Source: a virus
Length of the DNA stretch: 12,283 bases
UHGV virus genome: UHGV-0153572
Direction: 5' to 3' (one strand)
The notes under the pieces are model-generated. The model made no database searches. It was not told where the DNA came from and saw nothing but the letters and a program-made list of their open reading frames with translations. A program made the translations under genes and the position numbers. This document shows positions 1-12,283 of the stretch, in pieces (position 1 is the first letter of the stretch; every line of letters begins with the position of its first letter).

Positions 1-272
1 AGTAAGGCCAAACGCCTTAAAACGGTTGCAGGGGCATAGATTTTCAACCATTCATCTCTCAGCTTGGCGACATCGGCACTCCTGATGCTGGCCATATAGT
101 TTTTCGCCAGCTGAGTGCCTTTTAGTATCCGCACCAATGATTGGTCTTGCACTGCCCCTTTTTTGTCGGGAACAATCTCTTTTTCATATCGCGTTAGGGC
201 TTCATACAATGTCGTAGATTCCGCTTCGCTGCGGCTAAGCCAAACTCCTCTCGCCATTTCTGACTCGATCAT
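1..272 (-). CDS. Partial CDS (N-terminal ~90 codons; continues past the window start): putative tyrosine recombinase/integrase, core-binding N-terminal region
   Basis: Minus-strand ORF with ATG at 272..270 (alternative in-frame ATG at 284..282), open to position 1. Translation MIESEMARGVWLSRSEAESTTLYEALTRYEKEIVPDKKGAVQDQSLVRILKGTQLAKNYMASIRSADVAKLRDEWLKIYAPATVLRRLAL. The RYEK ... NYM(A/S)-I ... TVxRRLALL spacing resembles the core-binding domain of lambda-Int-type recombinases. Not in the ORF track because it is cut by the window edge. Confidence 0.4.
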   Translation of the reverse strand, partial: MIESEMARGVWLSRSEAESTTLYEALTRYEKEIVPDKKGAVQDQSLVRILKGTQLAKNYMASIRSADVAKLRDEWLKIYAPATVLRRLAL

Positions 273-501
273 TTTTGGGAACATACAATGTAATTAAAAT
301 AGACCCAGCTTACCGCCCTGCACCTATTGAACACAAAGATGTTGAGAGGGAAAACCTCGTTTACGGATTTGAGCTTCCCATTGGTAGTTACCACGTTTGC
401 GTATAGTCGCCATTTCTGTCTGATTCCTAACGAACTGTGGCAATATTGTGGCAAAAAATCCATTTAAATTCGATAGGTATTGATTTTACAAGATCAATTT
501 A

Positions 502-550
502 CGCATTCGTAATGCGAAGGTCGTAGGTTCGACTCCTATTATCGGCACCA
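502..550 (+). tRNA. Orphan 3' fragment (49 nt) of a tRNA-Thr(CGU) gene (thrW-type): anticodon arm, variable loop, T-arm, 3' acceptor strand and CCA; putative prophage att core, not a complete tRNA
   Basis: Sequence CGCATTCGTAATGCGAAGGTCGTAGGTTCGACTCCTATTATCGGCACCA matches, from memory, the 3' two-thirds of enterobacterial tRNA-Thr(CGU), including the GGTTCGACTCC T-arm and terminal CCA. The 27 nt upstream (475-501) do not match the 5' acceptor/D-arm, so no cloverleaf can form. Confidence 0.8.
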
Positions 551-564
551 TTTAAATCAATAAG

Positions 565-1728
565 TTACACATCATTAGTACCTTCCTTATTTTTTGACTG
601 GGACAAATTTGGGACCGATGGGTTCAGGATCGAGTCTATTTGCCGTGCGTGTTCGGTAAGGTGATTAGGTGCAAGGTGAGCATATCGACGAACCATTTCG
701 ATAGACTCCCACCCTCCCATTTCCTGTAACACTGACAACGGGACTCCGGCTTGAACCAGCCAACTTGCCCAGGTGTGTCTCAAGTCGTGAAATCTGAAAT
801 CATCAATACCAGCCCGTCTCAGCGCCGCTTTCCAGGCTGTGTTTGCGTCATACCGCATCTTCCTTACTGTTGGCGCTTTCGTTCCGTCTGGTTTGGTACA
901 GCTTTCCTTGTACACAAATACCCAACGGTGATGATTCCCGATTTGTTTTTTCAATACGCGACATGCAGTATCATTCAGCGCAACGCCAATTGCGCGGTTT
1001 GATTTACTCTCTTCCGGGTTTATCCATGCCACCCGGCGCTGCATATCTATTTGTTGCCATTCAAGGTTGATGATGTTCGAGCGTCTTAAACCTGTTGCCA
1101 GTGCAAATTCAACAACAGACTTTAATGGCTCCGGACATTCATCAATCAGCCTTTGTGCTTCATGGGGCTCCAGCCAGCGGATCCGTTTATTCTTTGGTTG
1201 AGGCACTTTAATAATTGGTGCCTTATCCAGCATTTTCCATTCACGCTCTGCGGCTCTTAGTAGGGCCTTTATAAATGAAAGATGCGTAGCCTTCGTTGCA
1301 ACGGACGCTGGTTTTGGCGTGTATTCTGGAACAGGTTTCCCTTTTTTTCTGCATGCTTCTGCCCTGAGTTTCCAGTTTTCCTCATGACGCCGGTTCGTCA
1401 TTTTCTGCATTGCTGAATAAATTTTTGATTCAGTAATGTCTCTTAGTTGCATTCCTGCGAAATGTTGAAGCCAGAATCCGATCCGGCTTTTGTCATCGTC
1501 CAGTGATTTTTTATGTGCTTTCTCTTCAAGCCACCTGACACACGCTTCCTCGAACGTTATATCAGGTATTTCACCAAGTTTGCTGACCCGCCATGCTTCA
1601 GCCTTTAGCTTGTCATGGAGTTCTGTCGCCTGCCTTTTGTCCTTTGTTCCAAGAGACTGTTTAAATCTTTTACCGTTCGGCAATGTGAAACTGGCGTACC
1701 ATATTTCACCTCTGCGGAAGAGTGACAT
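565..1728 (-). CDS. int: Site-specific tyrosine integrase, phage P22 Int-type (387 aa)
   Basis: 387-aa ORF with ATG at 1728..1726 preceded by an AGGAAAG/GAGG Shine-Dalgarno. C-terminal catalytic signature of tyrosine recombinases ([39 protein letters not shown], with R...HxxR...Y). Length and N-terminus ([24 protein letters not shown]) resemble P22 Int as remembered. Its 3' end lies 15 bp from the tRNA-Thr att core. Confidence 0.93.
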
Positions 1729-1955
1729 TTTCTTTCCTCTGTTATGCCATCACCCGCGCTCACCTGGACAGTATGCAGCGGAGACTGAAGAGCCGCAATG
1801 CAGGCTTGTCGTGTTGTGAGGTAAGGAGATTTATTCTTAGTGGGATCTTTGCGTGTTGCCTGAAGACGCCCTGTGCGTATCCAGTTAATGGCAGTCGGTC
1901 TGGATATCTTGAGAAAATGACAGGCCTCATCGAGTGTGAGGCTGTATGGCTCCAT
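1605..1955 (-). CDS. xis: Excisionase (Xis), helix-turn-helix excisionase family, 116 aa
   Basis: ATG at 1955..1953 with GAGGTG Shine-Dalgarno 6 nt upstream. N-terminus [33 protein letters not shown] fits the excisionase/AlpA-type HTH pattern. It overlaps the int start by ~120 nt, as in P22 xis-int. The ORF-track entry 1605..2039 is trimmed to the internal Met with an RBS. Confidence 0.75.
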
Positions 1956-2260
1956 TATTTCACCTCTTGCTGTGACATTGTTGAAAAATGGATACCAGCT
2001 CGTTGCTGCCAGACGATCCAACCGAGAGTCATATCCCATGCCATGTATTCGTTATCGCCGTTTTTTGCTCTCCGACGATCTACTAAGTCACCGAAACGCT
2101 TTTCCATGAATAATTCATAAGCTTCGCGTTCATCTGGTTCTACTTCCAGCGATAGGAGTGCGATTTCATAAGCACGGCGCTCAATATCGTCTCGCACGTC
2201 AAGGCTGCTGATACGCTCTTTAATTTCTTTAATCAGTTCTTTGTCGGTAAAAGTGATCAT
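1955..2260 (-). CDS. Hypothetical phage accessory protein (101 aa), acidic, no recognised domain
   Basis: ATG at 2260..2258. Its TAA stop (1957..1955) overlaps the xis ATG (TAATG), indicating translational coupling within the leftward operon. Sequence MITFTDKELIKEIKERISSLDVRDDIERRAYEIALL... Confidence 0.55.
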   Translation of the reverse strand: MITFTDKELIKEIKERISSLDVRDDIERRAYEIALLSLEVEPDEREAYELFMEKRFGDLVDRRRAKNGDNEYMAWDMTLGWIVWQQRAGIHFSTMSQQEVK

Positions 2261-2622
2261 TATGCTCCAGCCTCCGGTGCTTTTGGCATTATTGCCCAGT
2301 GAGTGATATTGACGTTTTCAAGGTCCCCGACCTGAAATGTCCACAGCCATTCTCCGGTTTCTTTTTGTCCCCAGGTGTACCAGAGAGAACGCCAGCCAAT
2401 TAGCCAGCCTTCTCCGTTAGCATCAAATAACAAAACACTTTCATTTGCTGGTGGCAGTTCAGCTGACACTGGTATTACTTTGTTTTCCTGTGCTGCACAT
2501 TTAGCTTCAAGCGCATCGAATTTACGCACCAGGTATTCAGCATCTGTTTCATTTACTTTCAGATCTCGCGGTACACATCTCCCACGAAGAAACCCTTCCA
2601 TTTCGAAAACATTCATGCGCAT
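2260..2622 (-). CDS. DUF551-like phage protein (118-120 aa)
   Basis: C-terminal Trp-rich block WLIGWRSLWYTWGQKETGEWLW...ITHWAIMPKAPE resembles the DUF551 signature (...THWMPLPEPP) common in lambdoid early-left regions. Candidate starts are ATG 2622 or ATG 2616; the latter overlaps the stop of the upstream HD gene (ATGA). Its stop overlaps the next gene's ATG (TAATG at 2258-2262). Confidence 0.6.
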   Translation of the reverse strand: MRMNVFEMEGFLRGRCVPRDLKVNETDAEYLVRKFDALEAKCAAQENKVIPVSAELPPANESVLLFDANGEGWLIGWRSLWYTWGQKETGEWLWTFQVGDLENVNITHWAIMPKAPEAGA

Positions 2623-3149
2623 TTGCGTAACTCCGATAACTCGTTAAAACGTTCCATAAACATCCCGTAGGCATGGCCCGGTGCCTGTGGAATCACTTTG
2701 AACATCTCTGTTGCCGGGATACCTTCCAGTACAGGCCAGAAAGAGCCATCATCAAGCCCGAGATCGCGGCGTTCGGTTGCCAGCATAATGAGATCGGCAT
2801 ATTTCACTGGCGTGCTCATAACAGGAGGTAACCCGTATTTCTCACGTATTACGGCGTCTATTTTTTCTTCCATCCGTTTATAGTCAGGAAGAAGTCGTTT
2901 CAGTGGTGCGGGGATGTCCTGGCAATATGCTTCTGTTGCATCATGCATTAAAGCTTCAAAAGCAAATTCCTGTGGCACCAGCTGGCTGCAAAGCACCGCA
3001 TGTTGGGCGACACTGTAGAAGTGTGAAAGATGTCCTGCAAAGCGACAGATATTTGAAAGGGAAACCGCGATATCGTTAATAACGATGTCGTCTTTATTTA
3101 TCCTGTCATAATAAAAATGCTTCCCGGAAAAAGTTTTAATAAATGACAT
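2613..3149 (-). CDS. HD-domain metal-dependent phosphohydrolase (178 aa from ATG 3149; the ORF extends to a GTG at 3176)
   Basis: H...HD motif context (VAQHAVLCSQ ... EALMHDATEAY) and later acidic residues typical of the HD phosphohydrolase superfamily. ATG 3149..3147 has a GGAGA Shine-Dalgarno 5 nt upstream; the longer ORF-track version starts at GTG 3176 without an obvious RBS. Confidence 0.7.
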   Translation of the reverse strand: MSFIKTFSGKHFYYDRINKDDIVINDIAVSLSNICRFAGHLSHFYSVAQHAVLCSQLVPQEFAFEALMHDATEAYCQDIPAPLKRLLPDYKRMEEKIDAVIREKYGLPPVMSTPVKYADLIMLATERRDLGLDDGSFWPVLEGIPATEMFKVIPQAPGHAYGMFMERFNELSELRKCA

Positions 3150-3273
3150 TTTGTTCTCCACGTATATGCGCTGCACCGCGCTGAATTCGGGTAAAAGGAA
3201 GCCCTCACCGTCCGGCGATTATTGAGTCAATTACATTTCCATAAATGCCCCCGTAGGGGCGGTTAGTTTCTCC

Positions 3274-3362
3274 ACAAAACAGAGAAGAACACCTGCGGTG
3301 GCAGCCGCCCGGATGGATTGGGTTATGAGCCCGTCGTCCGGTGATGCTCTTCTCTGTTTTGT
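3274..3362. repeat. 15-bp perfect inverted repeat (ACAAAACAGAGAAGA at 3274-3288; TCTTCTCTGTTTTGT at 3348-3362) with a 59-bp spacer, in the divergent intergenic region
   Basis: Direct reading: reverse complement of 3274-3288 equals 3348-3362 exactly. Lies between the leftward (int-proximal) and rightward operons. A GC-rich hairpin (GCCCC-CGTA-GGGGC, 3247-3260) lies just upstream. Confidence 0.6.
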
Positions 3363-3407
3363 AAAAAGGACGGTATCCGCCTGACGGCTAATCAGGCATA
3401 TCACCAG

Positions 3408-3611
3408 ATGGTGAAGCTGGGGATCGTCGAGCAGCGCGAACGATACAGCCGTACCGCGATTAACAACATCAAAAAATTCTGGTCGCTGACAGCGAAAGGC
3501 TGCATGTTCGGCAAGAACATCACCAGTCCTGCAAATCCGCGCGAGACGCAGCCGCATTTCTTCGAATCCCGATTCCCTGAGCTGTTAAAGCTGCTCGATA
3601 CCGTTCATTGA
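3408..3611 (+). CDS. Possible small hypothetical protein (67 aa); weak call
   Basis: ATG ORF ending 1 nt before the start of the next gene; amino-acid composition is more protein-like than the overlapping minus-strand 108-aa ORF. No strong RBS identified; could equally be non-coding regulatory sequence. Confidence 0.25.
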   Translation: MVKLGIVEQRERYSRTAINNIKKFWSLTAKGCMFGKNITSPANPRETQPHFFESRFPELLKLLDTVH

Positions 3612-3612
3612 G

Positions 3613-4608
3613 GTGACCGTGAGAGCACTACTGACCCCTGAAATAGCCCCGCGTATGGGGATCGTATTGTTCAGACCCGGTTCAGAGCTGATGCCCCTGT
3701 TTATGCAGGGGCGTGTCCTGCTGGAGCCTGAGCCGGAACGTTATTCATCTTTCGCCAGTGGTGCCGTTCCCGCGGCATCACAACCGCTGGCGGATGATCC
3801 TGCCGTTCGAGCCGTGTTCTGCAATGAGGCAGTGATCCGTCGTGCTGGTGGCGTGGAATGTCTTGAAAGCTGGTTACTTCGTGAAAAGGGCTGTCAGTGG
3901 CCTCATTCCGACTGGCACAGCGAGAACATGACCACAATGCGACACGCGCCGGGCGCGATCCGTCTGTGCTGGCACTGCGATAACCAGCTGCGCGATCAGT
4001 TCACGGAACGGCTGGAATCAATGGCAACGGATAACTGTGCCCGCTGGGTGTTGTCTGTTGTGCGTCGGGATCTCGGTTTTGATGACAGTCACGTTGTGAC
4101 AATGCCGGAACTGTGCTGGTGGCTGATTCGTAATGACCTGGCGGATGCCTTACCGGAAAGTGCAGCCCGTAAGGCACTGAGATTACCGAAGCCTGTTGTG
4201 CCGTCTGTCACCCGGGAAAGTGACCTTGTGCCTTCGGTTCCTGCCACCAGCATCATCCAGGATAAGGCGAAAAAGGTGCTGGCGCTGAAAGTGGATCCGG
4301 AGTCGCCGGAGTCTTTTATGTTACGCCCAAAACGTCGCCGCTGGGTTAATGAAAAGTACACGCGCTGGGTTAAGACACAGCCGTGTGCATGTTGTGGAAA
4401 GCCTGCTGATGATCCCCACCACCTGATAGGCCACGGTCAGGGTGGGATGGGTACAAAAGCGCATGACCTCTTTGTGTTGCCTTTGTGCAGAAAGCATCAC
4501 GACGAGCTGCATGCGGATACCGTGGCATTTGAAGAGAAGTATGGCTCCCAGCTGGAGCTGATATTTCGTTTTATCGATCGTGCGCTGGCAATAGGCGTAC
4601 TGGCGTAA
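3613..4608 (+). CDS. DUF968-like phage protein with C-terminal HNH/zinc-binding nuclease-like motif (~330 aa)
   Basis: C-terminal CACCGKPADDPHHLIGHGQGGMGTKAHDLFVLPLCRKHHDELH has Cys pairs and HH...H spacing like HNH-type modules. Overall architecture resembles the DUF968 (YdfU-type) proteins of lambdoid nin regions as remembered. Start is GTG 3613, or GTG 3619 with a GAGGTG Shine-Dalgarno. Confidence 0.7.
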   Translation: MTVRALLTPEIAPRMGIVLFRPGSELMPLFMQGRVLLEPEPERYSSFASGAVPAASQPLADDPAVRAVFCNEAVIRRAGGVECLESWLLREKGCQWPHSDWHSENMTTMRHAPGAIRLCWHCDNQLRDQFTERLESMATDNCARWVLSVVRRDLGFDDSHVVTMPELCWWLIRNDLADALPESAARKALRLPKPVVPSVTRESDLVPSVPATSIIQDKAKKVLALKVDPESPESFMLRPKRRRWVNEKYTRWVKTQPCACCGKPADDPHHLIGHGQGGMGTKAHDLFVLPLCRKHHDELHADTVAFEEKYGSQLELIFRFIDRALAIGVLA

Positions 4609-4621
4609 GTGGAGAACGAGC

Positions 4622-5350
4622 ATGAACCTTGAAGCTTTACCAAAATATTACTCCCCAAAATCTCCAAAATTGAGTGATGACGCACCGGCGACAGGCTCGG
4701 GTGGTTTAACAATTACAGATGTGATGGCTGCGCAGGGGATGGTGCAGTCGAAAGCACCGCTTGGGTTTGCCTTATTCCTGGCAAAAGTTGGTGTTCAGGA
4801 TCCTCAGTTTGCGATTGAAGGTCTGCTCAATTACGCGATGGCACTGGATAACCCGACATTGAACAAATTGAGTGAAGAAATCCGGTTACAGATCATCCCT
4901 TACCTTGTGAATTTTGCCTTTGCTGATTATTCCAGGTCTGCGGCAAGTAAGGCTCGCTGTGAGCATTGTGCTGGTACTGGATTTCATAATGTATTGCGCG
5001 AGGTGGTGAAACACTCCAGAAGCGGGGAATCTGTTATCAAGGAAGAGTGGGTGAAGGAACTATGTCAGCATTGTCATGGTAAGGGAGAAGTCAGCACAGC
5101 GTGCAGAGGGTGTAAGGGTAAAGGTATTGTCCTGGATGAAAAAAGGACCCGGCTTCATGGCACGCCTGTTTATAAGATTTGTGGGCGTTGCAATGGAAAC
5201 CGATTTAGCCGTTTACCAACCACACTGGCGCGGAATCATGTCCAGAAGCTGGTACCAGACCTGCCGAAGATCTGGGAAAAGTCACTTTCCGCCCGTCCAT
5301 CACGGCTTATGTGGTGGGAGATGACTGCTTTGACCAGCGCGATCGCCTGA
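4622..5350 (+). CDS. Phage antitermination protein Q-like protein with DnaJ-type zinc-finger repeats (242 aa); C-terminus possibly chimeric
   Basis: ATG 4622 with GGAGA Shine-Dalgarno. Four CxxCxGxG-type motifs (CEHCAGTG, CQHCHGKG, CRGCKGKG, CGRCNGNR; nt ~4958-5191). Resembles, from memory, the Q-type antiterminators of E. coli lambdoid prophages that sit next to a DUF968 gene. The last ~30 codons overlap, in another frame, DNA homologous to the DNA-circulation gene. Confidence 0.65.
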   Translation: MNLEALPKYYSPKSPKLSDDAPATGSGGLTITDVMAAQGMVQSKAPLGFALFLAKVGVQDPQFAIEGLLNYAMALDNPTLNKLSEEIRLQIIPYLVNFAFADYSRSAASKARCEHCAGTGFHNVLREVVKHSRSGESVIKEEWVKELCQHCHGKGEVSTACRGCKGKGIVLDEKRTRLHGTPVYKICGRCNGNRFSRLPTTLARNHVQKLVPDLPKIWEKSLSARPSRLMWWEMTALTSAIA

Positions 5351-6465
5351 TTGACGCGCTGAATAAACCCGGTCCCGGCACGCTTGTCCACCCGACATAC
5401 GGTGAGTTGAAAGTCTGTGTTGACGGGGAAGTTCGGGTCAGCACATCGAAGAGTGAAGGGCGTATTGTCCGCTTTGACCTGAAGTTTGTCGAAGCGGGAG
5501 ATCTCTCTTACCCCACATCAGGCGTGGCGACGGCGCAGACGCTGATGTCATCCTGTTCTGCACTGGATGACTGCATCAGTGACAGCTTCAGCGGTTTCAG
5601 TATCGATGGCGTGGCAGATTTTGTGCAGAACGACGTCGTCGGTAATGTCGGCACAATGCTTGGGTATGTTTCTGATGCGATGAAAGTGGTGGATTCTGCC
5701 GTATCGGATGCCGCCAGGCTGTTGCAGGGGGATATCTCGGTACTTCTTCCGCCGCCATCGTCAGGCAAAAATTTCGTTGAGCAGGTGCAGAAAATGTGGC
5801 GTACCGGGAAACGCCTTTATGGTAACGCCAGCGACCTGGTCACCATGATCAAAACGCTTTCCGGTGTCAGCCTTGGCAGCGATCTGCAACCGCGCGGCGT
5901 CTGGAAAACGGACAGTAAAACCACCGCCACGGCGACGCAGCAGCGTAACGTGGTTGCCAGCACCCTTCGTACGACCGCAATCAGCGAAGCGGCGTATGTC
6001 GTCACACGATTGCCTGCGCCCACAACTTCCGCGGTGATGCAGAATGCCACAGTGGGGCAGTCAACAACACCCGCGCAGAGCACCGGCTGGCCTTCTGTCA
6101 CGCATCCGGCACTGAACAATGCACCGGCGGTGAAAAACACGGTTGACCTGCCAACGTGGGAAGAACTGACCGACATTCGCGACACACTGAATACGGCAAT
6201 TGATAAGGAGTTGTCCCGTACAACCAGTGATGCGCTGTTTCTGGTGCTGCGCCGGGTGAAAGCAGATCTGAATGCGGATATCAACACGCGCCTTGAACAG
6301 TCTGCACGGATCATTCAGCGCACGCCGGATGAGGTTTTACCCGCGCTGGTGCTGGCGGCGACCTGGTTTGATAACGCGGCGCGTGACGCGGACATTATCC
6401 GGCGTAATGCCATTACGCATCCCGGCTTTGTGCCGGTGATCCCTCTGAAGGTGCCAGTGCAATGA
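5311..6465 (+). CDS. Mu-type DNA circulation protein (gpN family), N-terminally truncated; possible pseudogene
   Basis: Contains the family block AYVVGDDCFDQRDRLIDALNKPGPGTLVHPTYGELKV. The frame is open upstream only to 5209 (in-frame TAG at 5206-5208) and similarity begins around AEDLGK (~5263). The first possible start is GTG 5311 with no RBS, so ~45-60 N-terminal residues of a typical homologue are absent. Confidence 0.75.
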   Translation: MVGDDCFDQRDRLIDALNKPGPGTLVHPTYGELKVCVDGEVRVSTSKSEGRIVRFDLKFVEAGDLSYPTSGVATAQTLMSSCSALDDCISDSFSGFSIDGVADFVQNDVVGNVGTMLGYVSDAMKVVDSAVSDAARLLQGDISVLLPPPSSGKNFVEQVQKMWRTGKRLYGNASDLVTMIKTLSGVSLGSDLQPRGVWKTDSKTTATATQQRNVVASTLRTTAISEAAYVVTRLPAPTTSAVMQNATVGQSTTPAQSTGWPSVTHPALNNAPAVKNTVDLPTWEELTDIRDTLNTAIDKELSRTTSDALFLVLRRVKADLNADINTRLEQSARIIQRTPDEVLPALVLAATWFDNAARDADIIRRNAITHPGFVPVIPLKVPVQ

Positions 6466-7541
6466 ACGACAATGTCACGCTACGGGTAAATGGCCGGGAG
6501 TGGAATGGCTGGACATCGGTGCGCATCGGTGCCGGTATTGAACGGCTGGCGCGGGATTTCAGTGTGGAGATCACCCGCCAGTGGCCGGGAGATGAGGGTA
6601 TCACCACGCTTCAGCCGCGCATTAAAAACGGTTCAAAAGTGGAAGTGCTGATTGGTGATGAGCTGGTGATCACCGGCTGGGTGGAGGCGACGCCCGTTCG
6701 TTACGATGCCCGTTCGGTCAGCACCGGTATTGCCGGACGTAGTCTGACGGCTGACCTGATTGACTGTGCAGCCGAACCGACACAGTTTAACGGACGCTCG
6801 CTGGTGCAGATTGCGCAGGCGCTTGCTGCGCCTTTCGGCATTGAGGTGGTGAACAGCGGTGCGCCGTCGGGTGTTATTCCTGATGTTCAGCCTGATCACG
6901 GTGAAACGGTGATTGAGGTAATAAACAAAATACTCGGTCAGCAGCAGGCGCTGGCTTACGACGACCCGCACGGCAGGCTGGTGATTGGCGGTATTGGCTC
7001 AACGCGGGCACATACCGCGCTGGTACTTGGGGAAAACATCCTTTCCTGCGATACGGAGAAGAGTATCCGGGAGCGGTTTTCTGTTTACCAGGTGGCGGGG
7101 CAGCGTGCCGGAAACGACGATGATTTCGGTGAGGTCACCACCACCGCGCTGCGGGCCCGCACAGAGGACGCATTTATTGCCCGTTACCGTCCGATGTATA
7201 TCAGGCAGACAGGGCAGGCCACGGGGGCAGGCTGTATTGCGCGTGCTGACTTTGAAGCCCGACAACGGGCGGCGCGGACGGATGAAACCACCTATGTGGT
7301 GCAGGGCTGGCGACAGGGTAACGGTACGCTGTGGCAGCCCAACCAGCGGGTGATTGTCTTTGATCCGGTCTGTGGTTTCGACAATACCGAACTGCTTGTC
7401 TCGGAAGTCACGTTTACTCAGGACCAGAACGGCACCCTGACGGAAATCCGTGTCGGCCCGCCTGATGCTTATCTGCCTGAACCCGAAGCCCCCGGCGCGC
7501 GGAAAAAGAAAAAAGCCAGAGTACAGGAGGACCCGTTCTGA
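6462..7541 (+). CDS. Mu gpP-type tail/baseplate protein (phage late control D / baseplate hub family), 359 aa
   Basis: ATG 6462 overlaps the upstream stop (ATGA). Size, position directly after the DNA-circulation gene and sequence character fit the Mu P / P2 gpD family. Part of a tightly overlapping operon. Confidence 0.8.
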   Translation: MNDNVTLRVNGREWNGWTSVRIGAGIERLARDFSVEITRQWPGDEGITTLQPRIKNGSKVEVLIGDELVITGWVEATPVRYDARSVSTGIAGRSLTADLIDCAAEPTQFNGRSLVQIAQALAAPFGIEVVNSGAPSGVIPDVQPDHGETVIEVINKILGQQQALAYDDPHGRLVIGGIGSTRAHTALVLGENILSCDTEKSIRERFSVYQVAGQRAGNDDDFGEVTTTALRARTEDAFIARYRPMYIRQTGQATGAGCIARADFEARQRAARTDETTYVVQGWRQGNGTLWQPNQRVIVFDPVCGFDNTELLVSEVTFTQDQNGTLTEIRVGPPDAYLPEPEAPGARKKKKARVQEDPF

Positions 7542-8089
7542 TGAGGACGATTGAAGCCATGCAGCGACAACTTCTCGGCCTGATTGCGCGGGCAGTGGTG
7601 AAAAGCATCAGTGCCGCCACGAAATGTCAGACCGTGGATGTGTCCCTGATTGCCGGTGAACCCAAAGCCGGGGTTGAACATCTTGAACCCTACGGTTTTA
7701 CCGCAAGGGCAAACAGCGGCGCGGAAGCGGTGGTGTTGTTTCCGGATGGCGACCGTTCTCATGCGGTGGTTGTTACGGTGTCGGACCGGCGCTACCGCCT
7801 GAAAGGGTTGCAGACGGGTGAGGTGGCTGTCTATGACGATCAGGGGCAGTCTGTGACGCTGACCCGGGAGGGGATCGTGGTGGACGGTGCAGGTAAAACG
7901 ATCACGTTTCGCAATTCACCTAAAGCACGTTTTGAAATGGACCTGGAAGTGACAGGACAGGTGAAAGACCTGTGCGACTCCAGCGGCACTACCATGTCAG
8001 CGATGCGGCTTGCCTATAACGGGCATCGTCACAGAGAGAACGGTCAGGGCAGTAACACCGACAAACCGGATAAAGCGATGGAGGCATGA
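7541..8089 (+). CDS. Baseplate assembly protein V-type (Mu gp45-like spike protein), 182 aa
   Basis: ATG 7541 overlaps the upstream TGA (TGATG), with an AGGAGG Shine-Dalgarno. N-terminal region MRTIEAMQRQLLGLIARAVVKSI...GEPKAGVEHLEPYGFTARA is typical of the phage baseplate V family. Confidence 0.8.
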   Translation: MRTIEAMQRQLLGLIARAVVKSISAATKCQTVDVSLIAGEPKAGVEHLEPYGFTARANSGAEAVVLFPDGDRSHAVVVTVSDRRYRLKGLQTGEVAVYDDQGQSVTLTREGIVVDGAGKTITFRNSPKARFEMDLEVTGQVKDLCDSSGTTMSAMRLAYNGHRHRENGQGSNTDKPDKAMEA

Positions 8090-8514
8090 TGGAACTGTGG
8101 CTGACGGTGAACGGTAAACGCACCTGCGCCAGCGCACCGCTGGATCCGCTGACCCGCGCCGTGGTGATTTCCCTGTTTACCTGGCGGCGGGCGGAGCCTG
8201 ATGACAACGCCGACGTCCCGATGGGATGGTGGGGGGATACCTGGCCTGCGGTACAGAATGACCGTTACGGCTCCCGACTGTGGCTGCTTCAGCGCAGCAA
8301 ACTGACCAATCAGCTGGTGCAGACAGTAAGGGGGTATATCCGCGAATGCCTGCAATGGATGATTGATGACGGCGTGGTGTCCCGTATTGATCTGGATATC
8401 CGCCGCACCGGGATTAATGAGCTGGGTAACAGTATCACCCTCTGGCGTCGTGACGGACCGGTAATGATTTCTTTTGATGATCTGTGGAGTGCGATAACGC
8501 ATGGCGGACAGTGA
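8086..8514 (+). CDS. Phage GP46-family baseplate protein (Mu gp46 / gpW-like), 142 aa
   Basis: ATG 8086 overlaps the upstream stop, with a GGAGG Shine-Dalgarno. Small protein in the conserved position between the V-type and J-type baseplate genes. Confidence 0.8.
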   Translation: MMELWLTVNGKRTCASAPLDPLTRAVVISLFTWRRAEPDDNADVPMGWWGDTWPAVQNDRYGSRLWLLQRSKLTNQLVQTVRGYIRECLQWMIDDGVVSRIDLDIRRTGINELGNSITLWRRDGPVMISFDDLWSAITHGGQ

Positions 8515-9559
8515 ATTTCAGCGCCCGACGCTGGCAGAAAATATCAGTATGCTCCGTAACGATTTATTCGCCAGGCTGGACGTCAGCGACACGCTCCGGC
8601 GCATGGATGAAGACGTGCGGGCAAAGGTGTATGCGGCGGCGCTGCATACGGTTTACGGGTACATCGATTATCTGGCAATGAACATGCTGCCTGACCTGTG
8701 CGATGAGTCCTGGCTGGCGCGACATGCTGCGATGAAACGGTGTCCGCGCAAGGGGGCCACGGCTGCCAGCGGGTATATGCGTTGGGAAGGTGTCAGCGAT
8801 GGCCTGAAGGTGACCGCCGGGAGTGTTATTCAGCGCGATGACCTGGTTCAGTACACGGCAACTGCCGATGCAACCAGCTCCGGTGGTGTCCTGCGCGTGC
8901 CGATCGCCTGCTCAAGTGCAGGCGCGGTCGGTAACGCTGACGACGGTACGTCATTAATCCTGGTCACGCCGGTTAATGGTCTGCCGTCTTCCGGCGTGGC
9001 AGATACCCTTACAGGCGGATTTGATACTGAAGAGCTGGAAACGTGGCGCGCCCGCGTCATTGAGCGGTATTACTGGACGCCTCAGGGCGGGGCTGACGGG
9101 GACTATGTCGTCTGGGCTAAAGAAGTGCCCGGCATTACCCGCGCATGGACATACCGTCACTGGATGGGAACGGGAACTGTCGGTGTGATGATTGCCAGCA
9201 GTGACCTGATTAATCCCATTCCGGAAGAATCAACGGAAACGGCAGCAAGACAACATATCGGGCCACTGGCCCCGGTGGCAGGCTCTGATTTGTATGTATT
9301 CAGGCCGGTGGCACATACGGTGGATTTTCATATCCGCGTGACGCCGGACACACCGGAAATACGGGCTGCCATTACCGCGGAGTTGCGTTCGTTCCTGCTG
9401 CGTGATGGTTATCCGCAGGGAGAACTGAAGGTATCGCGTATCAGTGAGGCGATTTCCGGTGCGAACGGGGAATACAGCCATCAGTTGCTTGCACCGGTGG
9501 ACAATATCTCCATTGCGAAAAACGAACTGGCGGTACTGGGGACGATTTCATGGACGTGA
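8501..9559 (+). CDS. Baseplate J-like protein (Mu gp47 family), 352 aa
   Basis: ATG 8501, overlapping the upstream gene by 14 nt. Size and synteny (after gp46-like, before the DUF2313 gene) fit the Baseplate_J family. Confidence 0.8.
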
Positions 9560-10134
9560 CAAACGATGATTACATCCGCCTGTTATCGGCACTGTTGCCG
9601 CCCGGTCCGGCGTGGTCAGCCAGCGATCCGGCGATTGCCGGTGCGGCACCGTCATTAACCCGTGTTCATCAGCGTGCGGATGCCCTGATGCGGGAGCTGG
9701 ATCCGCGCACCACCACTGAACTGATAAACCGCTGGGAGCGTCTGTGCGGTCTGCCGGATGAATGTATTCCGGCGGGAACGCAGACCCTTCGCCAGCGTCA
9801 GCAACGGCTGGATGCGAAGGTTAACCTGGCGGGCGGCATCAACGAGGATTTTTATCTTGCACAGCTTGCTGCCCTGGGCAGACCAGATGCCACCATCACG
9901 CGATACGACAAAAGCACGTTCACCTGCTCATCGGCCTGTACTGACGCGGTGAATGCGCCGGAATGGCGGTATTACTGGCAGGTCAACATGCCAGCCGCCA
10001 CCAACACCACCTGGATGACATGTGGCGATCCCTGTGATTCCGCACTGCGTATCTGGGGTGACACCGTTGTCGAGTGTGTGCTTAACAAACTCTGCCCGTC
10101 GCATACCTACGTAATTTTTAAATATCCGGAGTAA
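9550..10134 (+). CDS. DUF2313 tail protein (Mu gp48 / P2 gpI-like; YmfQ-type), 194 aa
   Basis: ATG 9550, overlapping the upstream gene by 10 nt. N-terminus [22 protein letters not shown]... and the Cys-rich C-terminus resemble, from memory, the YmfQ/DUF2313 proteins encoded immediately upstream of tail-fibre genes. Confidence 0.8.
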
Positions 10135-10137
10135 TCC

Positions 10138-10902
10138 ATGCATCGTATAGACACGAAAACCGCGCAGAAGGATAAGTTCGGCGCGGGTAAGAACGGTTTT
10201 ACCCGTGGTAACCCCCAGACCGGCACGCCTGCCACCGATCTGGATGATGACTACTTTGACATGTTGCAGGAAGAGCTTTGTGGCGTGGTGGAGGCATCCG
10301 GTGCCAGCCTGGAGAAGGGGCGGCATGACCAGCTGCTTACCGCGCTTCGTGCGCTGCTGTTAAGCCGCAAGAATCCGTTTGGCGATATCAAATCGGATGG
10401 CACCGTGAAAACGGCTCTCGAAAACCTTGGTTTGGGAGAAGGTGCTCCAGCTATTGGCGTTCCGTTCTTCTGGCCGTCCGCTGCAATGCCAAATACTGTA
10501 ATCGACAGCTGGTCCGGTATGGTGTTTTTGAAGTTCAACGGCGCGAAATTCTCTGCCACTGATTACCCTGTGCTGGCGAAAGTGTTTCCTTCGCTGGTAT
10601 TACCTGAAGCCCGCGGTGATTTCATTCGTATCTGGGATAATGGTCGTGGTGTAGATAGTGGACGTGGATTACTTAGTACGCAGTCTGACCTGATGAAACA
10701 ATTTACTTTGCAATACTACGGTCCTTCTGCTGGTACTGGAACAAGAACGGTTTTCGCCCTCCAGAGTAATGCGAACGGCATATATACGAGTGGTATTAGT
10801 CAGAATGATGGTAGTGGCACCGCTGCGGCTTTTAATGTACCAGGCGGCACCGAAACACGCCCACGTAACATTGCATTCAACTTTTTAGTAAGGGCTAAAT
10901 AA
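10138..10902 (+). CDS. Tail fibre protein (S-type): conserved N-terminal baseplate-attachment region plus variable C-terminal receptor-binding region, 254 aa
   Basis: ATG 10138 with GGAG Shine-Dalgarno. N-terminus [55 protein letters not shown] is the conserved tail-fibre constant region. Codons ~93-101 ([10 protein letters not shown]) are encoded by a Hin/Gin-type crossover-like site. The AT-richer downstream part is the variable region. Confidence 0.85.
10415..10440. other. Candidate Hin/Gin/Cin/Pin-family DNA-invertase crossover site inside the tail-fibre gene
   Basis: CTCTCGAAAACC-TT-GGTTTGGGAGAA: 26 bp with near-symmetric 12-bp arms around a central dinucleotide. It matches the remembered hixL (TTCTTGAAAACCAAGGTTTTTGATAA) at 19/26 positions and shares the AAACC/GGTTT core with gix. 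It sits at the constant/variable junction of the fibre gene, as gix does in Mu S. Confidence 0.55.
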
Positions 10903-11495
10903 TGAAACCTGTTTTTGATAAAAATGGGCTGGCTACAGTACCGGGTGATATGCGTTGTTTTTATTATGATGCAGTAACGTCTGAATATACTGGCTGGTCT
11001 GATGAATATATTAATACTGGTGTAAGTATGCCCGCCTGTTCCACTGGTATTGACCCGGGCGAATACATTCCGGGGAAAGTGGCAGTATTTACGGGTAAGG
11101 GATGGAGCCATGAAGAAGACCACCGCAATGAGACTGCTTACTCAATCGAAAATGGCGCAGCTGTTACAGTGGATTATATCGGTGCCATCAAAGACGGTTA
11201 TGTCACGCTTTCACCGTTAACGCCATACGATAAATGGGATGGTGAGAAATGGGTGACAGATACTGAGGCACAGCATAGTGCCTCAGTAGACGCGGCAGAA
11301 GCACAGCGCCAGTCGCTGATTGATGCTGCAATGGCTTCCATCAGTCTGATTCAACTGAAATTGCAGGCCGGGCGGAAGCTGACGCAGGCAGAAACAACCC
11401 GACTTAACGCCGTGCTGGATTACATTGACGCGGTGACGGCAACAGATACCAGCACCGCGCCGGATATCATCTGGCCTGAACAGCCGGAGGCGTAG
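10902..11495 (+). CDS. Tail fibre assembly chaperone (Tfa / Mu U-type), 197 aa
   Basis: ATG 10902 overlaps the tail-fibre stop (TAATG). N-terminus [36 protein letters not shown] and C-terminal DTSTAPDIIWPEQPEA are characteristic of the Tfa family. Confidence 0.9.
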   Translation: MKPVFDKNGLATVPGDMRCFYYDAVTSEYTGWSDEYINTGVSMPACSTGIDPGEYIPGKVAVFTGKGWSHEEDHRNETAYSIENGAAVTVDYIGAIKDGYVTLSPLTPYDKWDGEKWVTDTEAQHSASVDAAEAQRQSLIDAAMASISLIQLKLQAGRKLTQAETTRLNAVLDYIDAVTATDTSTAPDIIWPEQPEA

Positions 11496-11907
11496 GCCAT
11501 TCAATATCTGGAGCACTGGAAGTATCGACCAGTTCCAGTGCGTCAAGATAATCCAGCCATAAATTATATTGCGCCAGTTCCTCACCTTTCAGACGACCAA
11601 TAGCAGCCTTTCCTGGCCACTGCTTACTGTTAATATATTCATTAACTCGATTTATGAGTGCCTGTTTTTTTCGTTCCGCTTCTGACAGTTGTTCTTCATG
11701 AGTTAGCGGCGGTACGTCATCCCATGCAGGATAGCCATCATCACCCGCAACTCTCACTTTCCCTGGAGGTGGGGACAGGTACTTAATAAATATATCCTCA
11801 TCAACTTCAACTCCATTATGAGGCCATAACCCAGACTTCTTATACTGACTTTCCAGAGTAAATGGGTAAAACATATTAGTTTTAGCATCGTAAAGATATT
11901 TACTCAT
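11467..11907 (-). CDS. Second tail fibre assembly chaperone (Tfa'-type), inverted orientation, 146 aa
   Basis: ATG 11907..11905 with AGGAAG Shine-Dalgarno 7 nt upstream. C-terminus ...LVDTSSAPDIEWPTPPAVQAR carries the Tfa family motif. Its 3' end overlaps the plus-strand tfa 3' end convergently by 29 nt. The ORF-track version (to 12006) is trimmed to the Met with an RBS. Confidence 0.8.
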   Translation of the reverse strand: MSKYLYDAKTNMFYPFTLESQYKKSGLWPHNGVEVDEDIFIKYLSPPPGKVRVAGDDGYPAWDDVPPLTHEEQLSEAERKKQALINRVNEYINSKQWPGKAAIGRLKGEELAQYNLWLDYLDALELVDTSSAPDIEWPTPPAVQAR

Positions 11908-11908
11908 T

Positions 11909-12283
11909 TTATCTTCCTGTGGCAAACCAGCGGCAACCAGCGACAGTTGGAACATTGAAGGATGGATTTCCTTTATCAAGAGATCCCAGGTTATCTGCCA
12001 TGACACTTGAGTTAGTCAATTGATAGAATTGCCATACTGACATTTTCCCTGGCACAGGAGCATGGTCATGTTCATTAATAGAAATGACGCCTGTCGGAAA
12101 TGGGATAGGAAAATTAATCAAAACTTCATTTATTGTGGCCCCAGTTAGCCCCCATTGTTCAATATAACCATCCGGGCTTCGCCTCCATCCCGTCGTTGTA
12201 TCTCCCCAAAAGCCAAGAACTCGGACATTGGCAGCAGCACCAGCATGTGGATCAGTGCTACATCCATTTTGGTATCTCTTGCA
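11909..12283 (-). CDS. Partial CDS (C-terminal 124 codons; 5' end beyond the window): alternative tail-fibre C-terminal (receptor-binding) region
   Basis: Minus-strand frame is open from the window end to the TAA at 11911..11909, 1 nt before the tfa' start. Translation ...ANVRVLGFWGDTTTGWRRSPDGYIEQWGLTGATINEVLINFPIPFPTGVISINEHDHAPVPGK... contains the PDGxIxQWG-type motif of tail-fibre distal domains and a diverged copy of the LGxGxG junction. Confidence 0.7.
   Translation of the reverse strand, partial: CKRYQNGCSTDPHAGAAANVRVLGFWGDTTTGWRRSPDGYIEQWGLTGATINEVLINFPIPFPTGVISINEHDHAPVPGKMSVWQFYQLTNSSVMADNLGSLDKGNPSFNVPTVAGCRWFATGR

Follow-up and report, generated by a model that had tools for sequence, protein, structure and literature searches.

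What kind of element is carried by the virus genome UHGV-0153572, and why are so many of its genes intact? The 12,283-nucleotide (nt) stretch of DNA analyzed here in full, hereafter the window, holds a P22-type integrase and excisionase, a Q-like antiterminator gene, and a Mu-type baseplate and tail-fibre module. The original prediction read this combination as a mosaic, heavily deleted prophage whose retained genes are selected as host-beneficial cargo. Window positions 505-12206 are better described as a cryptic prophage of the SfV/e14 kind that formed recently, by deletion, from an SfV-like temperate phage integrated at thrW (probability roughly 0.88). The surviving genes are very probably intact because the deletions are young, and selective retention is unsupported. 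The gene content, the deletion junctions, their rarity, their identity across two complete Escherichia coli genomes, and an inversion of the tail-fibre segment are observed directly.

Alignment to SfV resolves the structure of the element. Megablast against phage records returns collinear blocks at 97-98% identity to the Shigella phages SfIV, SfV, and SfI. Window 505-3260 corresponds to SfV 20592-23347 (attP, int, xis, and orf28-30), 3249-3384 to SfV 24640-24775 (upstream of yfdP), 3363-5263 to SfV 31557-33457 (the truncated orf44, orf45, and Q minus its last 111 nt), and 5264-10441, without a gap, to SfV 11797-16974 (orf15 minus its first 142 nt, through orf21). Two deletions, D2 and D3, are sized against the prophage of E. 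coli JE86-ST05. The D2 joint lies at 3375/3376, where 4 nt (GGTA, 3372-3375) are common to both parental sides; about 6.3 kb is gone, which held the early promoters together with cI/cro, dam, rusA, the genes for replication, and the 5' portion of kilA-N. At the D3 joint, 5263/5264, microhomology amounts to 0-3 nt and about 16.3 kb is missing. Q has lost its final 36 codons and the DNA-circulation gene its first 48; between them, the late promoter region and the lysis, cos/terminase, head, sheath, tube, and tape-measure genes are gone entirely. Alignment to related prophages, a check of the kind proposed with the original prediction, maps both breakpoints to the base.

Both joints are rare. In a comparison panel of 5426 complete E. 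coli genomes, each is found in only two, TUM10008 and E4 (hereafter the sister genomes), at 100% identity, and no difference from the sister genomes is detected across the collinear element. Because the junctions are this rare and this uniform, too little time has passed for decay. A near-identical intact relative exists: over window 3372-5266, a single mismatch in 1895 nt separates the element from JE86-ST05, which retains a complete prophage with a full Q of 250 amino acids (aa). Judged from these alignments, the intact 39-kb prophage of JE86-ST05 is a near-parent. Within the phage block, three genes are truncated at 3375/3376 and 5263/5264 (kilA-N, Q, and the DNA-circulation gene N, hereafter kilA-N', Q', and 'N), the hallmark of a cryptic prophage. 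The same three are flagged as pseudogenes by the Prokaryotic Genome Annotation Pipeline (PGAP) in both TUM10008 and E4: an antiterminator without its C-terminus, a DNA-circularization gene without its N-terminus, and a KilA-N gene without its N-terminus.

The ancestor would have been a temperate phage of about 39 kb resembling the intact thrW prophages of E. coli JE86-ST05 and enterotoxigenic E. coli (ETEC) H10407, with the order att, int, xis, yfdT/S/R, immunity, replication, kilA-N, DUF968, Q, lysis, terminase, head, sheath/tube/tape measure, Mu-like baseplate, invertible tail fibre, pinE, cargo, and att. Two illegitimate-recombination deletions, D2 and D3, would have produced a remnant predicted to be incapable of replication, lysis, DNA packaging, or tail assembly. 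Its genes would for the most part be stripped of their native promoters and are probably silent. Occasional excision is plausible, as int and xis are intact and both att cores are present in the sister genomes.

The gene set of a viable phage (immunity, replication, lysis, packaging, head, sheath, tube, and tape-measure functions) is incomplete, which makes the element a derivative, not a functional member, of the SfV-like family. Open reading frame (ORF) listing and comparison with Pfam and PHROG reveal, among the window ORFs tested, neither a repressor or cro gene nor any gene for replication, lysis, terminase, portal, capsid, sheath, tube, or tape measure, and block alignment shows that the SfV and JE86-ST05 intervals for the missing functions are absent. 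The genes that are present are all recognized at 57-100% identity to annotated relatives. The original prediction was therefore right that these classes are missing between the int-xis module and the baseplate genes, and right to call the element a remnant and not a viable inducible phage, given the absent essential genes and the genes truncated at the two deletion joints. A tailocin (an R-type, phage-tail-like bacteriocin) was considered and rejected, as the baseplate is not accompanied by sheath, tube, tape-measure, or lysis genes. Capsid, terminase, or lysis genes immediately to the right of the window, in a late operon continuous with the baseplate genes, had been named as the finding that would overturn the remnant interpretation. 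None lies to the right of the baseplate and fibre genes in TUM10008 or E4, where that side holds pinE, a GIY-YIG gene, a restriction-modification pair, AbiTii, and attR. The test itself is ill-posed, because capsid and terminase genes in this phage type lie to the left (upstream) of the baseplate genes and never to the right.

Several points weigh against a recent, passive origin of the remnant. A gap at about 3249-3260, where the yfdQ and yfdP genes are missing, may be either an older deletion or natural module variation. The right end of the element (the right crossover site, pinE, and attR) lies outside the window, and its content is drawn from the sister genomes. The promoter scan described below is a crude consensus search, and expression may still be possible. 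Lastly, e14, an independent remnant, also keeps the J-gp48-fibre-pin end, a retention that selection, instead of chance or position, may explain.

The unusual pairing of gene modules is itself no product of deletion. SfV-like phages natively pair early genes of lambdoid type with a contractile tail like that of Mu (PMC3636060; PMC3851460), as annotations also indicate, and the same native architecture is seen in SfV, SfIV, and the H10407 and JE86-ST05 prophages. Because this is the normal architecture of the SfV family, only the Q'/'N joint arises from deletion; the mosaic of lambdoid early and Mu-type tail genes is present as described, but it is ancestral. By its gene content and alignments, the window element would be an ordinary defective E. 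coli prophage with lambdoid early genes and a Mu-like contractile tail in its ancestry.

Intact phages of this layout differ from the window element chiefly in completeness. SfV, SfIV, SfI, and the JE86-ST05 and H10407 prophages share with it the 46-bp att core, int, xis, orf28-30, DUF968, Q, and the Mu-like baseplate in the same order at 97-99.9% nt identity. These phages are complete at 37-40 kb, whereas the window element is short of about 22.6 kb of their gene set. The right end varies: the Shigella phages carry gtrABC beside att where the window-type element has a pin cassette, and intact prophages of the same layout with a right-end pinE cassette occur at thrW in ETEC H10407 (with attR) and JE86-ST05. 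P22 resembles the window element in its Int (90% aa identity), its Xis (87%), and its attP core in thrW, as the prediction of P22-type int and xis implied. The rest of P22 is unrelated, with a short podovirus-type tail, canonical nin genes, and a Q counterpart, gp23, to which the window Q is only 32% identical. The assignment of a nin region fails. The neighbours of Q are DUF968 and the KilA-N stub, no NinB to NinH gene lies upstream of Q, and the nin genes of P22 have no counterpart in the window; only the position relative to Q is equivalent.

Among K-12 prophages, e14 is of the same phage type. Like the window element, it begins at the left with int-xis, and internal deletion has joined its early genes to morphogenesis genes; its chimeras comprise ymfN (replication/terminase) and fragments of beeE and jayE. 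The right end of e14, jayE'(gp47')-ymfQ(gp48)-stfP-tfaP-tfaE-stfE'-pinE, is 98% identical at the nt level to window 8772-10445 and has an identical 27-nt crossover site, in agreement with the likeness to e14 first suggested. The two differ in site, integrase, and content: e14, inserted in icd with a different integrase, still has the repressor/cro pair ymfK/ymfT and bears lit and mcrA as cargo but has lost gpP through gp46, whereas the window element, at thrW, retains the full set of five baseplate genes and no longer has its immunity region. The suggested likeness to Qin also holds, as the DUF968-Q pair matches ydfU-ydfT (57% and 86% aa identity, respectively) and Qin has a pin gene. CPS-53 (KpLE1) shares yfdT-yfdS-yfdR at 95% nt identity and a tail-fibre fragment. 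CPS-53 (argW) and Qin (ydfJ region) differ from the window element in their sites, integrases, and retained gene sets, and neither keeps the baseplate module.

The retained genes are intact in part. The integrase, xis, yfdT/S/R, DUF968, and the five baseplate genes are whole, as predicted, but kilA-N', Q', and 'N are truncated. The predicted abutment of a Q-like gene and a truncated DNA-circulation gene is a fusion at 5263/5264. Q' (4622-5350, plus strand; PF03589) retains codons 1-214 of 250 up to 5263, lacks the last 36 aa, and continues through 28 out-of-frame codons from the DNA-circulation gene to 5350; alignments show it diverging from SfV Q and Qin YdfT past residue 214. On the other side of the joint, 'N (5264-6465, plus strand), a Mu-N-like DNA-circulation/tail gene, is missing its first 48 codons and matches only positions 55-88 of the 88-position DNA_circ_N profile, that is, the last 34.

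Downstream of 'N, the Mu-type baseplate module follows on the plus strand, each gene matching a Mu-named Pfam family: a gpP-like hub (6462-7541), the gp45 spike (7541-8089), gp46 (8086-8514), gp47/J (8501-9559), and gp48/YmfQ (9550-10134). These five genes (6462-10134) are intact, with 97.8% gapless identity to SfV orf16-20, no stops, and a ratio of non-synonymous to synonymous divergence (pN/pS) of 0.00-0.13. The Pfam order N, P, 45, 46, 47, 48, tail fibre, together with the gapless alignment to SfV orf15-21, bears out the prediction of a Mu-type baseplate and tail-fibre module.

To the left of Q', DUF968 (3613-4608, plus strand) is an intact HNH-like gene of the YdfU family corresponding to SfV orf45 (PF06147, E=3.5e-81; phrog_96 full length), and its product has the same accession in TUM10008, E4, and JE86-ST05. 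It is preceded by the 3' stub kilA-N' (3376-3611, plus strand; SfV orf44), whose N-terminal part is deleted and which matches only positions 206-269 of the 273 in phrog_129. A non-coding or fragmentary stretch from upstream of yfdP (3249-3375, equivalent to SfV 24640-24766) ends at D2. Further left, Pfam and PHROG identify intact yfdT-, yfdS- (DUF551), and yfdR-like (HD-domain 5'-deoxynucleotidase) genes (1955-3149, minus strand), which belong to the leftward early region, are 95% identical at the nt level to K-12 CPS-53 yfdT-yfdR, and are collinear with SfV orf28-30. The absence of yfdQ and yfdP at about 3249-3260 was considered as a third lineage-specific deletion and rejected, as 3180-3384 is contiguous in many genomes, including O157:H7. 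At 3246-3261, exactly where related prophages have or lack the yfdQ/yfdP module, lies a GC-rich hairpin, GCCCCCGTAGGGGC; similar hairpins flank both sides of the module in SfV, which suggests that this site might be a recurrent recombination point between modules.

The tail-fibre switching cassette named in the original prediction exists, and it has operated. The fibre gene (10138-10902, plus strand; 254 aa, with matches to PHROG tail-fibre families along the whole ORF) is constant up to 10441, in its N-terminal part, and variable beyond, where an invertible segment (10442-12206) in its present orientation supplies the C-terminal part. Within the gene lies the left crossover site for Pin, a Din-family invertase (10415-10441, plus strand), a 27-nt sequence, CTCTCGAAAACCTTGGTTTGGGAGAAG, that is identical in K-12 e14, H10407, TUM10008, and E4. 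The segment holds two opposed sets of genes, as in Din-family cassettes. On the plus strand (10442-11495), variable part B at the start of the segment is in frame with the fibre gene and is followed by the chaperone tfa B (10902-11495; Caudo_TAP, 197 aa). On the minus strand (11467-12206) are the chaperone tfa A (11467-11907; Caudo_TAP) and a promoterless alternative fibre C-terminus, variable part A (11909-12206). Protein identities bear out these contents. The segment ends in the window about 64 nt short of the right crossover site, which lies with pinE beyond 12206; pinE is present in TUM10008, E4, H10407, and JE86-ST05.

Homology to the sister genomes changes strand exactly at the crossover site. 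The left 10.4 kb of the window is collinear with and identical to TUM10008 except for 66 foreign nt at 277-342, and window 10422-12207 corresponds to TUM10008 L001 20266-18481 on the opposite strand at 99.9% identity. The segment in E4 is oriented as in TUM10008, so that the window is inverted with respect to both sister genomes. The window consequently has a 254-aa fibre and a 197-aa chaperone in frame, whereas the sister genomes have a 221-aa fibre and a 146-aa chaperone. Pin-type inversion has thus operated since the window and the sister genomes diverged, and it is the one activity of the remnant for which there is direct evidence. The G segment of Mu (Gin), the C segment of P1 (Cin), and the P segment of e14 (Pin) share the same design, in which the crossover falls inside the fibre gene and C-terminus and chaperone come in two opposed sets, and an inversion like theirs is here observed between near-identical genomes. 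The window switch differs in belonging to a tail-less element, with its invertase gene and right site outside the window. Pin inversion still runs in an element unable to make a tail, so that it has no obvious phenotypic output.

At the left end, the att core (505-550, plus strand; 46 bp) is the 3' part of the tRNA-Thr gene thrW and exactly matches the published core of SfI, SfII, SfV, SfX, and P22, ATTCGTAATGCGAAGGTCGTAGGTTCGACTCCTATTATCGGCACCA (PMC3636060); it also aligns to SfV attP and to H10407 thrW. The arm 5' of the core derives from a neighbouring island, not from thrW. The core adjoins an integrase and excisionase of the P22/SfV type, as in SfV-like thrW phages, at 98% nt identity to SfV. 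The tyrosine integrase (565-1728, minus strand; 387 aa; PF00589, E=3e-48) is intact, with no stops, 11 differences from SfV, and its 90% identity to P22 Int extending over all 387 aa. The xis gene (1605-1955, minus strand; HTH_17) encodes 116 aa from the P22-equivalent start within an ORF open to 2039, and PGAP annotates the equivalent coding sequence in TUM10008. The window holds the left att core; the right core lies outside it, with one mismatch in TUM10008, and E4 has two perfect cores. The limits of 565-12283 first given for the element accordingly shift: it starts at 505, and because 12207-12283 is foreign, its right boundary in the window is 12206, where E. coli sequence ends.

The sister genomes place the remnant in a crowded thrW locus. 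The order in TUM10008 is proA, thrW, a 19.5-kb island, partial thrW, the remnant, pinE, a GIY-YIG nuclease, a Dcm-type methylase with a type II restriction enzyme, DUF6650, AbiTii, the mismatched att core, and paoD. E4 has the same remnant and cargo, an insertion sequence of the IS3 type after pinE, and a different left-hand island. The stretch between pinE and the right att core, spanning L004 3006-9542 in TUM10008 and L085 3687-10223 in E4, holds the same five functions in both (GIY-YIG, Dcm-type methylase, type II enzyme, DUF6650, and AbiTii), whereas the content at this position differs in JE86-ST05 and H10407 (FlxA-like; AraC-type regulator). From these comparisons, the right end of the prophage is a variable cargo slot.

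This arrangement raises the alternative that survives best, namely that the remnant is an integrase-, excisionase-, and att-competent chassis for an excisable island of about 19 kb with a defence payload between pinE and attR. It agrees with the intact int and xis, with the cargo genes and att cores seen in both sister genomes, and with the different cargo at the same position in JE86-ST05 and H10407. The cargo, however, lies outside the window and is known from the sister genomes only, excision is putative, and the native promoters of int and xis are deleted. Such a carrier is unlikely on this evidence, and it is compatible with, without replacing, the account of the window genes as a recent passive remnant. 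A fuller version, in which a still-excisable, Pin-active chassis is kept for a mobile and variable defence payload at thrW with the baseplate genes as tolerated passengers, is improbable.

Recombination between phages and defective prophages is established, and the baseplate and fibre genes could in principle serve as a reservoir of templates for superinfecting or co-resident SfV-like phages, altering their host range. Homology is ample, with 97-98% nt identity to functional SfV-like phages over 5.2 kb, and homologous segments of the window are found at several places per E. coli genome. Such a role would nonetheless be a by-product of any prophage remnant rather than a host-selected function, and it is a doubtful explanation for what the window retains.

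Domestication, the retention of the block for host benefit as a tail-fibre switch or through enzymes such as YfdR or DUF968, fares worse still and is considered very unlikely. The inference was drawn from intact, tightly coupled genes, and the retained genes are indeed free of internal stops, with 151 synonymous against 44 non-synonymous differences from SfV (pN/pS 0.09); e14 has independently kept the same right-end module. Cryptic prophages of K-12, including e14 and CPS-53, measurably affect stress tolerance (PMC3105296), which also counts in favor of a host benefit. The low pN/pS, however, reflects selection during life as a working phage, not since the deletions. Because the junctions are rare and 100% identical, leaving no time to decay, intactness is uninformative about selection after the deletions. 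The overlapping start and stop codons are equally uninformative, because they are the native SfV operon layout, and 5264-10441 aligns to SfV without a gap. PADLOC finds no defence-family match among the window proteins, and a consensus scan finds no sigma-70 promoter upstream of either gene block on the coding strand, which is weak evidence but fits the loss of the early and late promoters. A cellular use of a baseplate without sheath, tube, and tape measure is not known. The step from intact genes to selected cargo is thus unsupported, and the case carries a general caution: intact genes and a compact operon in a remnant are no sign of selection when the deletions are recent.

The weakest alternative, that assembly of the source wrongly joined Q' to 'N, is suggested by two short foreign stretches elsewhere in the window but is refuted by the complete genomes of TUM10008 and E4, independently finished, which share the same D3 and D2 joints and, because their islands to the left of the element differ, show that the joints are not assembly artefacts.

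The foreign stretches themselves are almost certainly chimeric or artefactual gut-metagenome sequence, not biology; that these Bacteroidales-identical stretches are real cross-phylum insertions is extremely improbable. The first, 66 nt at 277-342, replaces 42 nt of E. coli sequence in the integrase gene of the neighbouring island and puts two in-frame stops into it. It is 100% identical to 72 human-gut metagenome contigs, inside an AICARFT/PurH-type ORF; all 93 E. coli genomes that carry the flank have the 42-nt version, and the 66-nt stretch is absent from every complete E. coli genome. The second, the last 77 nt of the window (12207-12283), is joined to E. coli sequence at 12206. Its sequence is that of the 3' end of a Poly_export/SLBB polysaccharide-export gene of Phocaeicola type, with 100% identity to L007, a contig recorded as an uncultured Lachnobacterium metagenome-assembled genome (MAG), and 98.7% to L006, whose record names Phocaeicola vulgatus. 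Likewise, the only matches to a 24-nt pattern taken at the window end are a contig recorded as Phocaeicola vulgatus and one recorded as an uncultured Lachnobacterium MAG. Exact-match scans return nothing for the Q'/'N junction in genome_contigs or for the last 50 nt in viral_contigs. A distant BLAST search with the last 94 nt of the window finds no match in the 5426 complete E. coli genomes. The foreign joints overlap by 0-1 nt. The one at 12206, with about 1 nt of overlap, falls about 64 nt short of where the right inversion site is expected, and the 77 nt are probably a chimeric contig end; contigs would also be expected to break near an invertible segment when orientations are mixed in the population. 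For users of the contig, the foreign stretches are a data-quality warning.

The importance of the element is small. Prophage remnants of the SfV/e14 type are abundant across E. coli genomes, 5422 of the 5426 complete genomes match some part of the window, and the remnant is already annotated, pseudogene flags included, in two RefSeq genomes. Its use is as a dated and clean case of early prophage decay, with a near-identical intact parent, base-level junctions, and no decay since.

Outside the prophage, window 1-413 (minus strand; PF00589) is the 5' part of another island's integrase gene, in tandem at thrW; it is identical to TUM10008 L001 except for the foreign 66 nt, and it is the integrase in which the 19.5-kb island of TUM10008 ends. 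In TUM10008, thrW is tandemly occupied, with that island (L005 28875-48589) separating intact thrW from the remnant; on the island are DUF4297, an AAA ATPase/HNH pair, HigA, remnants of TraJ, TrbJ, and TrbL, a pPIWI-associating nuclease, DUF4365, VbhA, and its own integrase. The different island at the same place in E4 carries cbtA/cbeA. Across the D2 junction, a 108-aa ORF (3231-3557, minus strand) matches phrog_33599, a family of unknown function, at residues 59-100 only and is probably a chance fusion created by the D2 deletion.

ARAGORN, and Rfam at the gathering threshold, find no complete tRNA or other RNA family in the window. PGAP places a 112-nt "tRNA-Ser" at window 415-526 (TUM10008 L001 8415-8526) and in many other genomes with this flank. 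The call is reproduced by neither ARAGORN nor Rfam, and the stretch consists of the 3' 46 nt of thrW joined to the arm of the other island, so that the annotation over this hybrid att site looks spurious.

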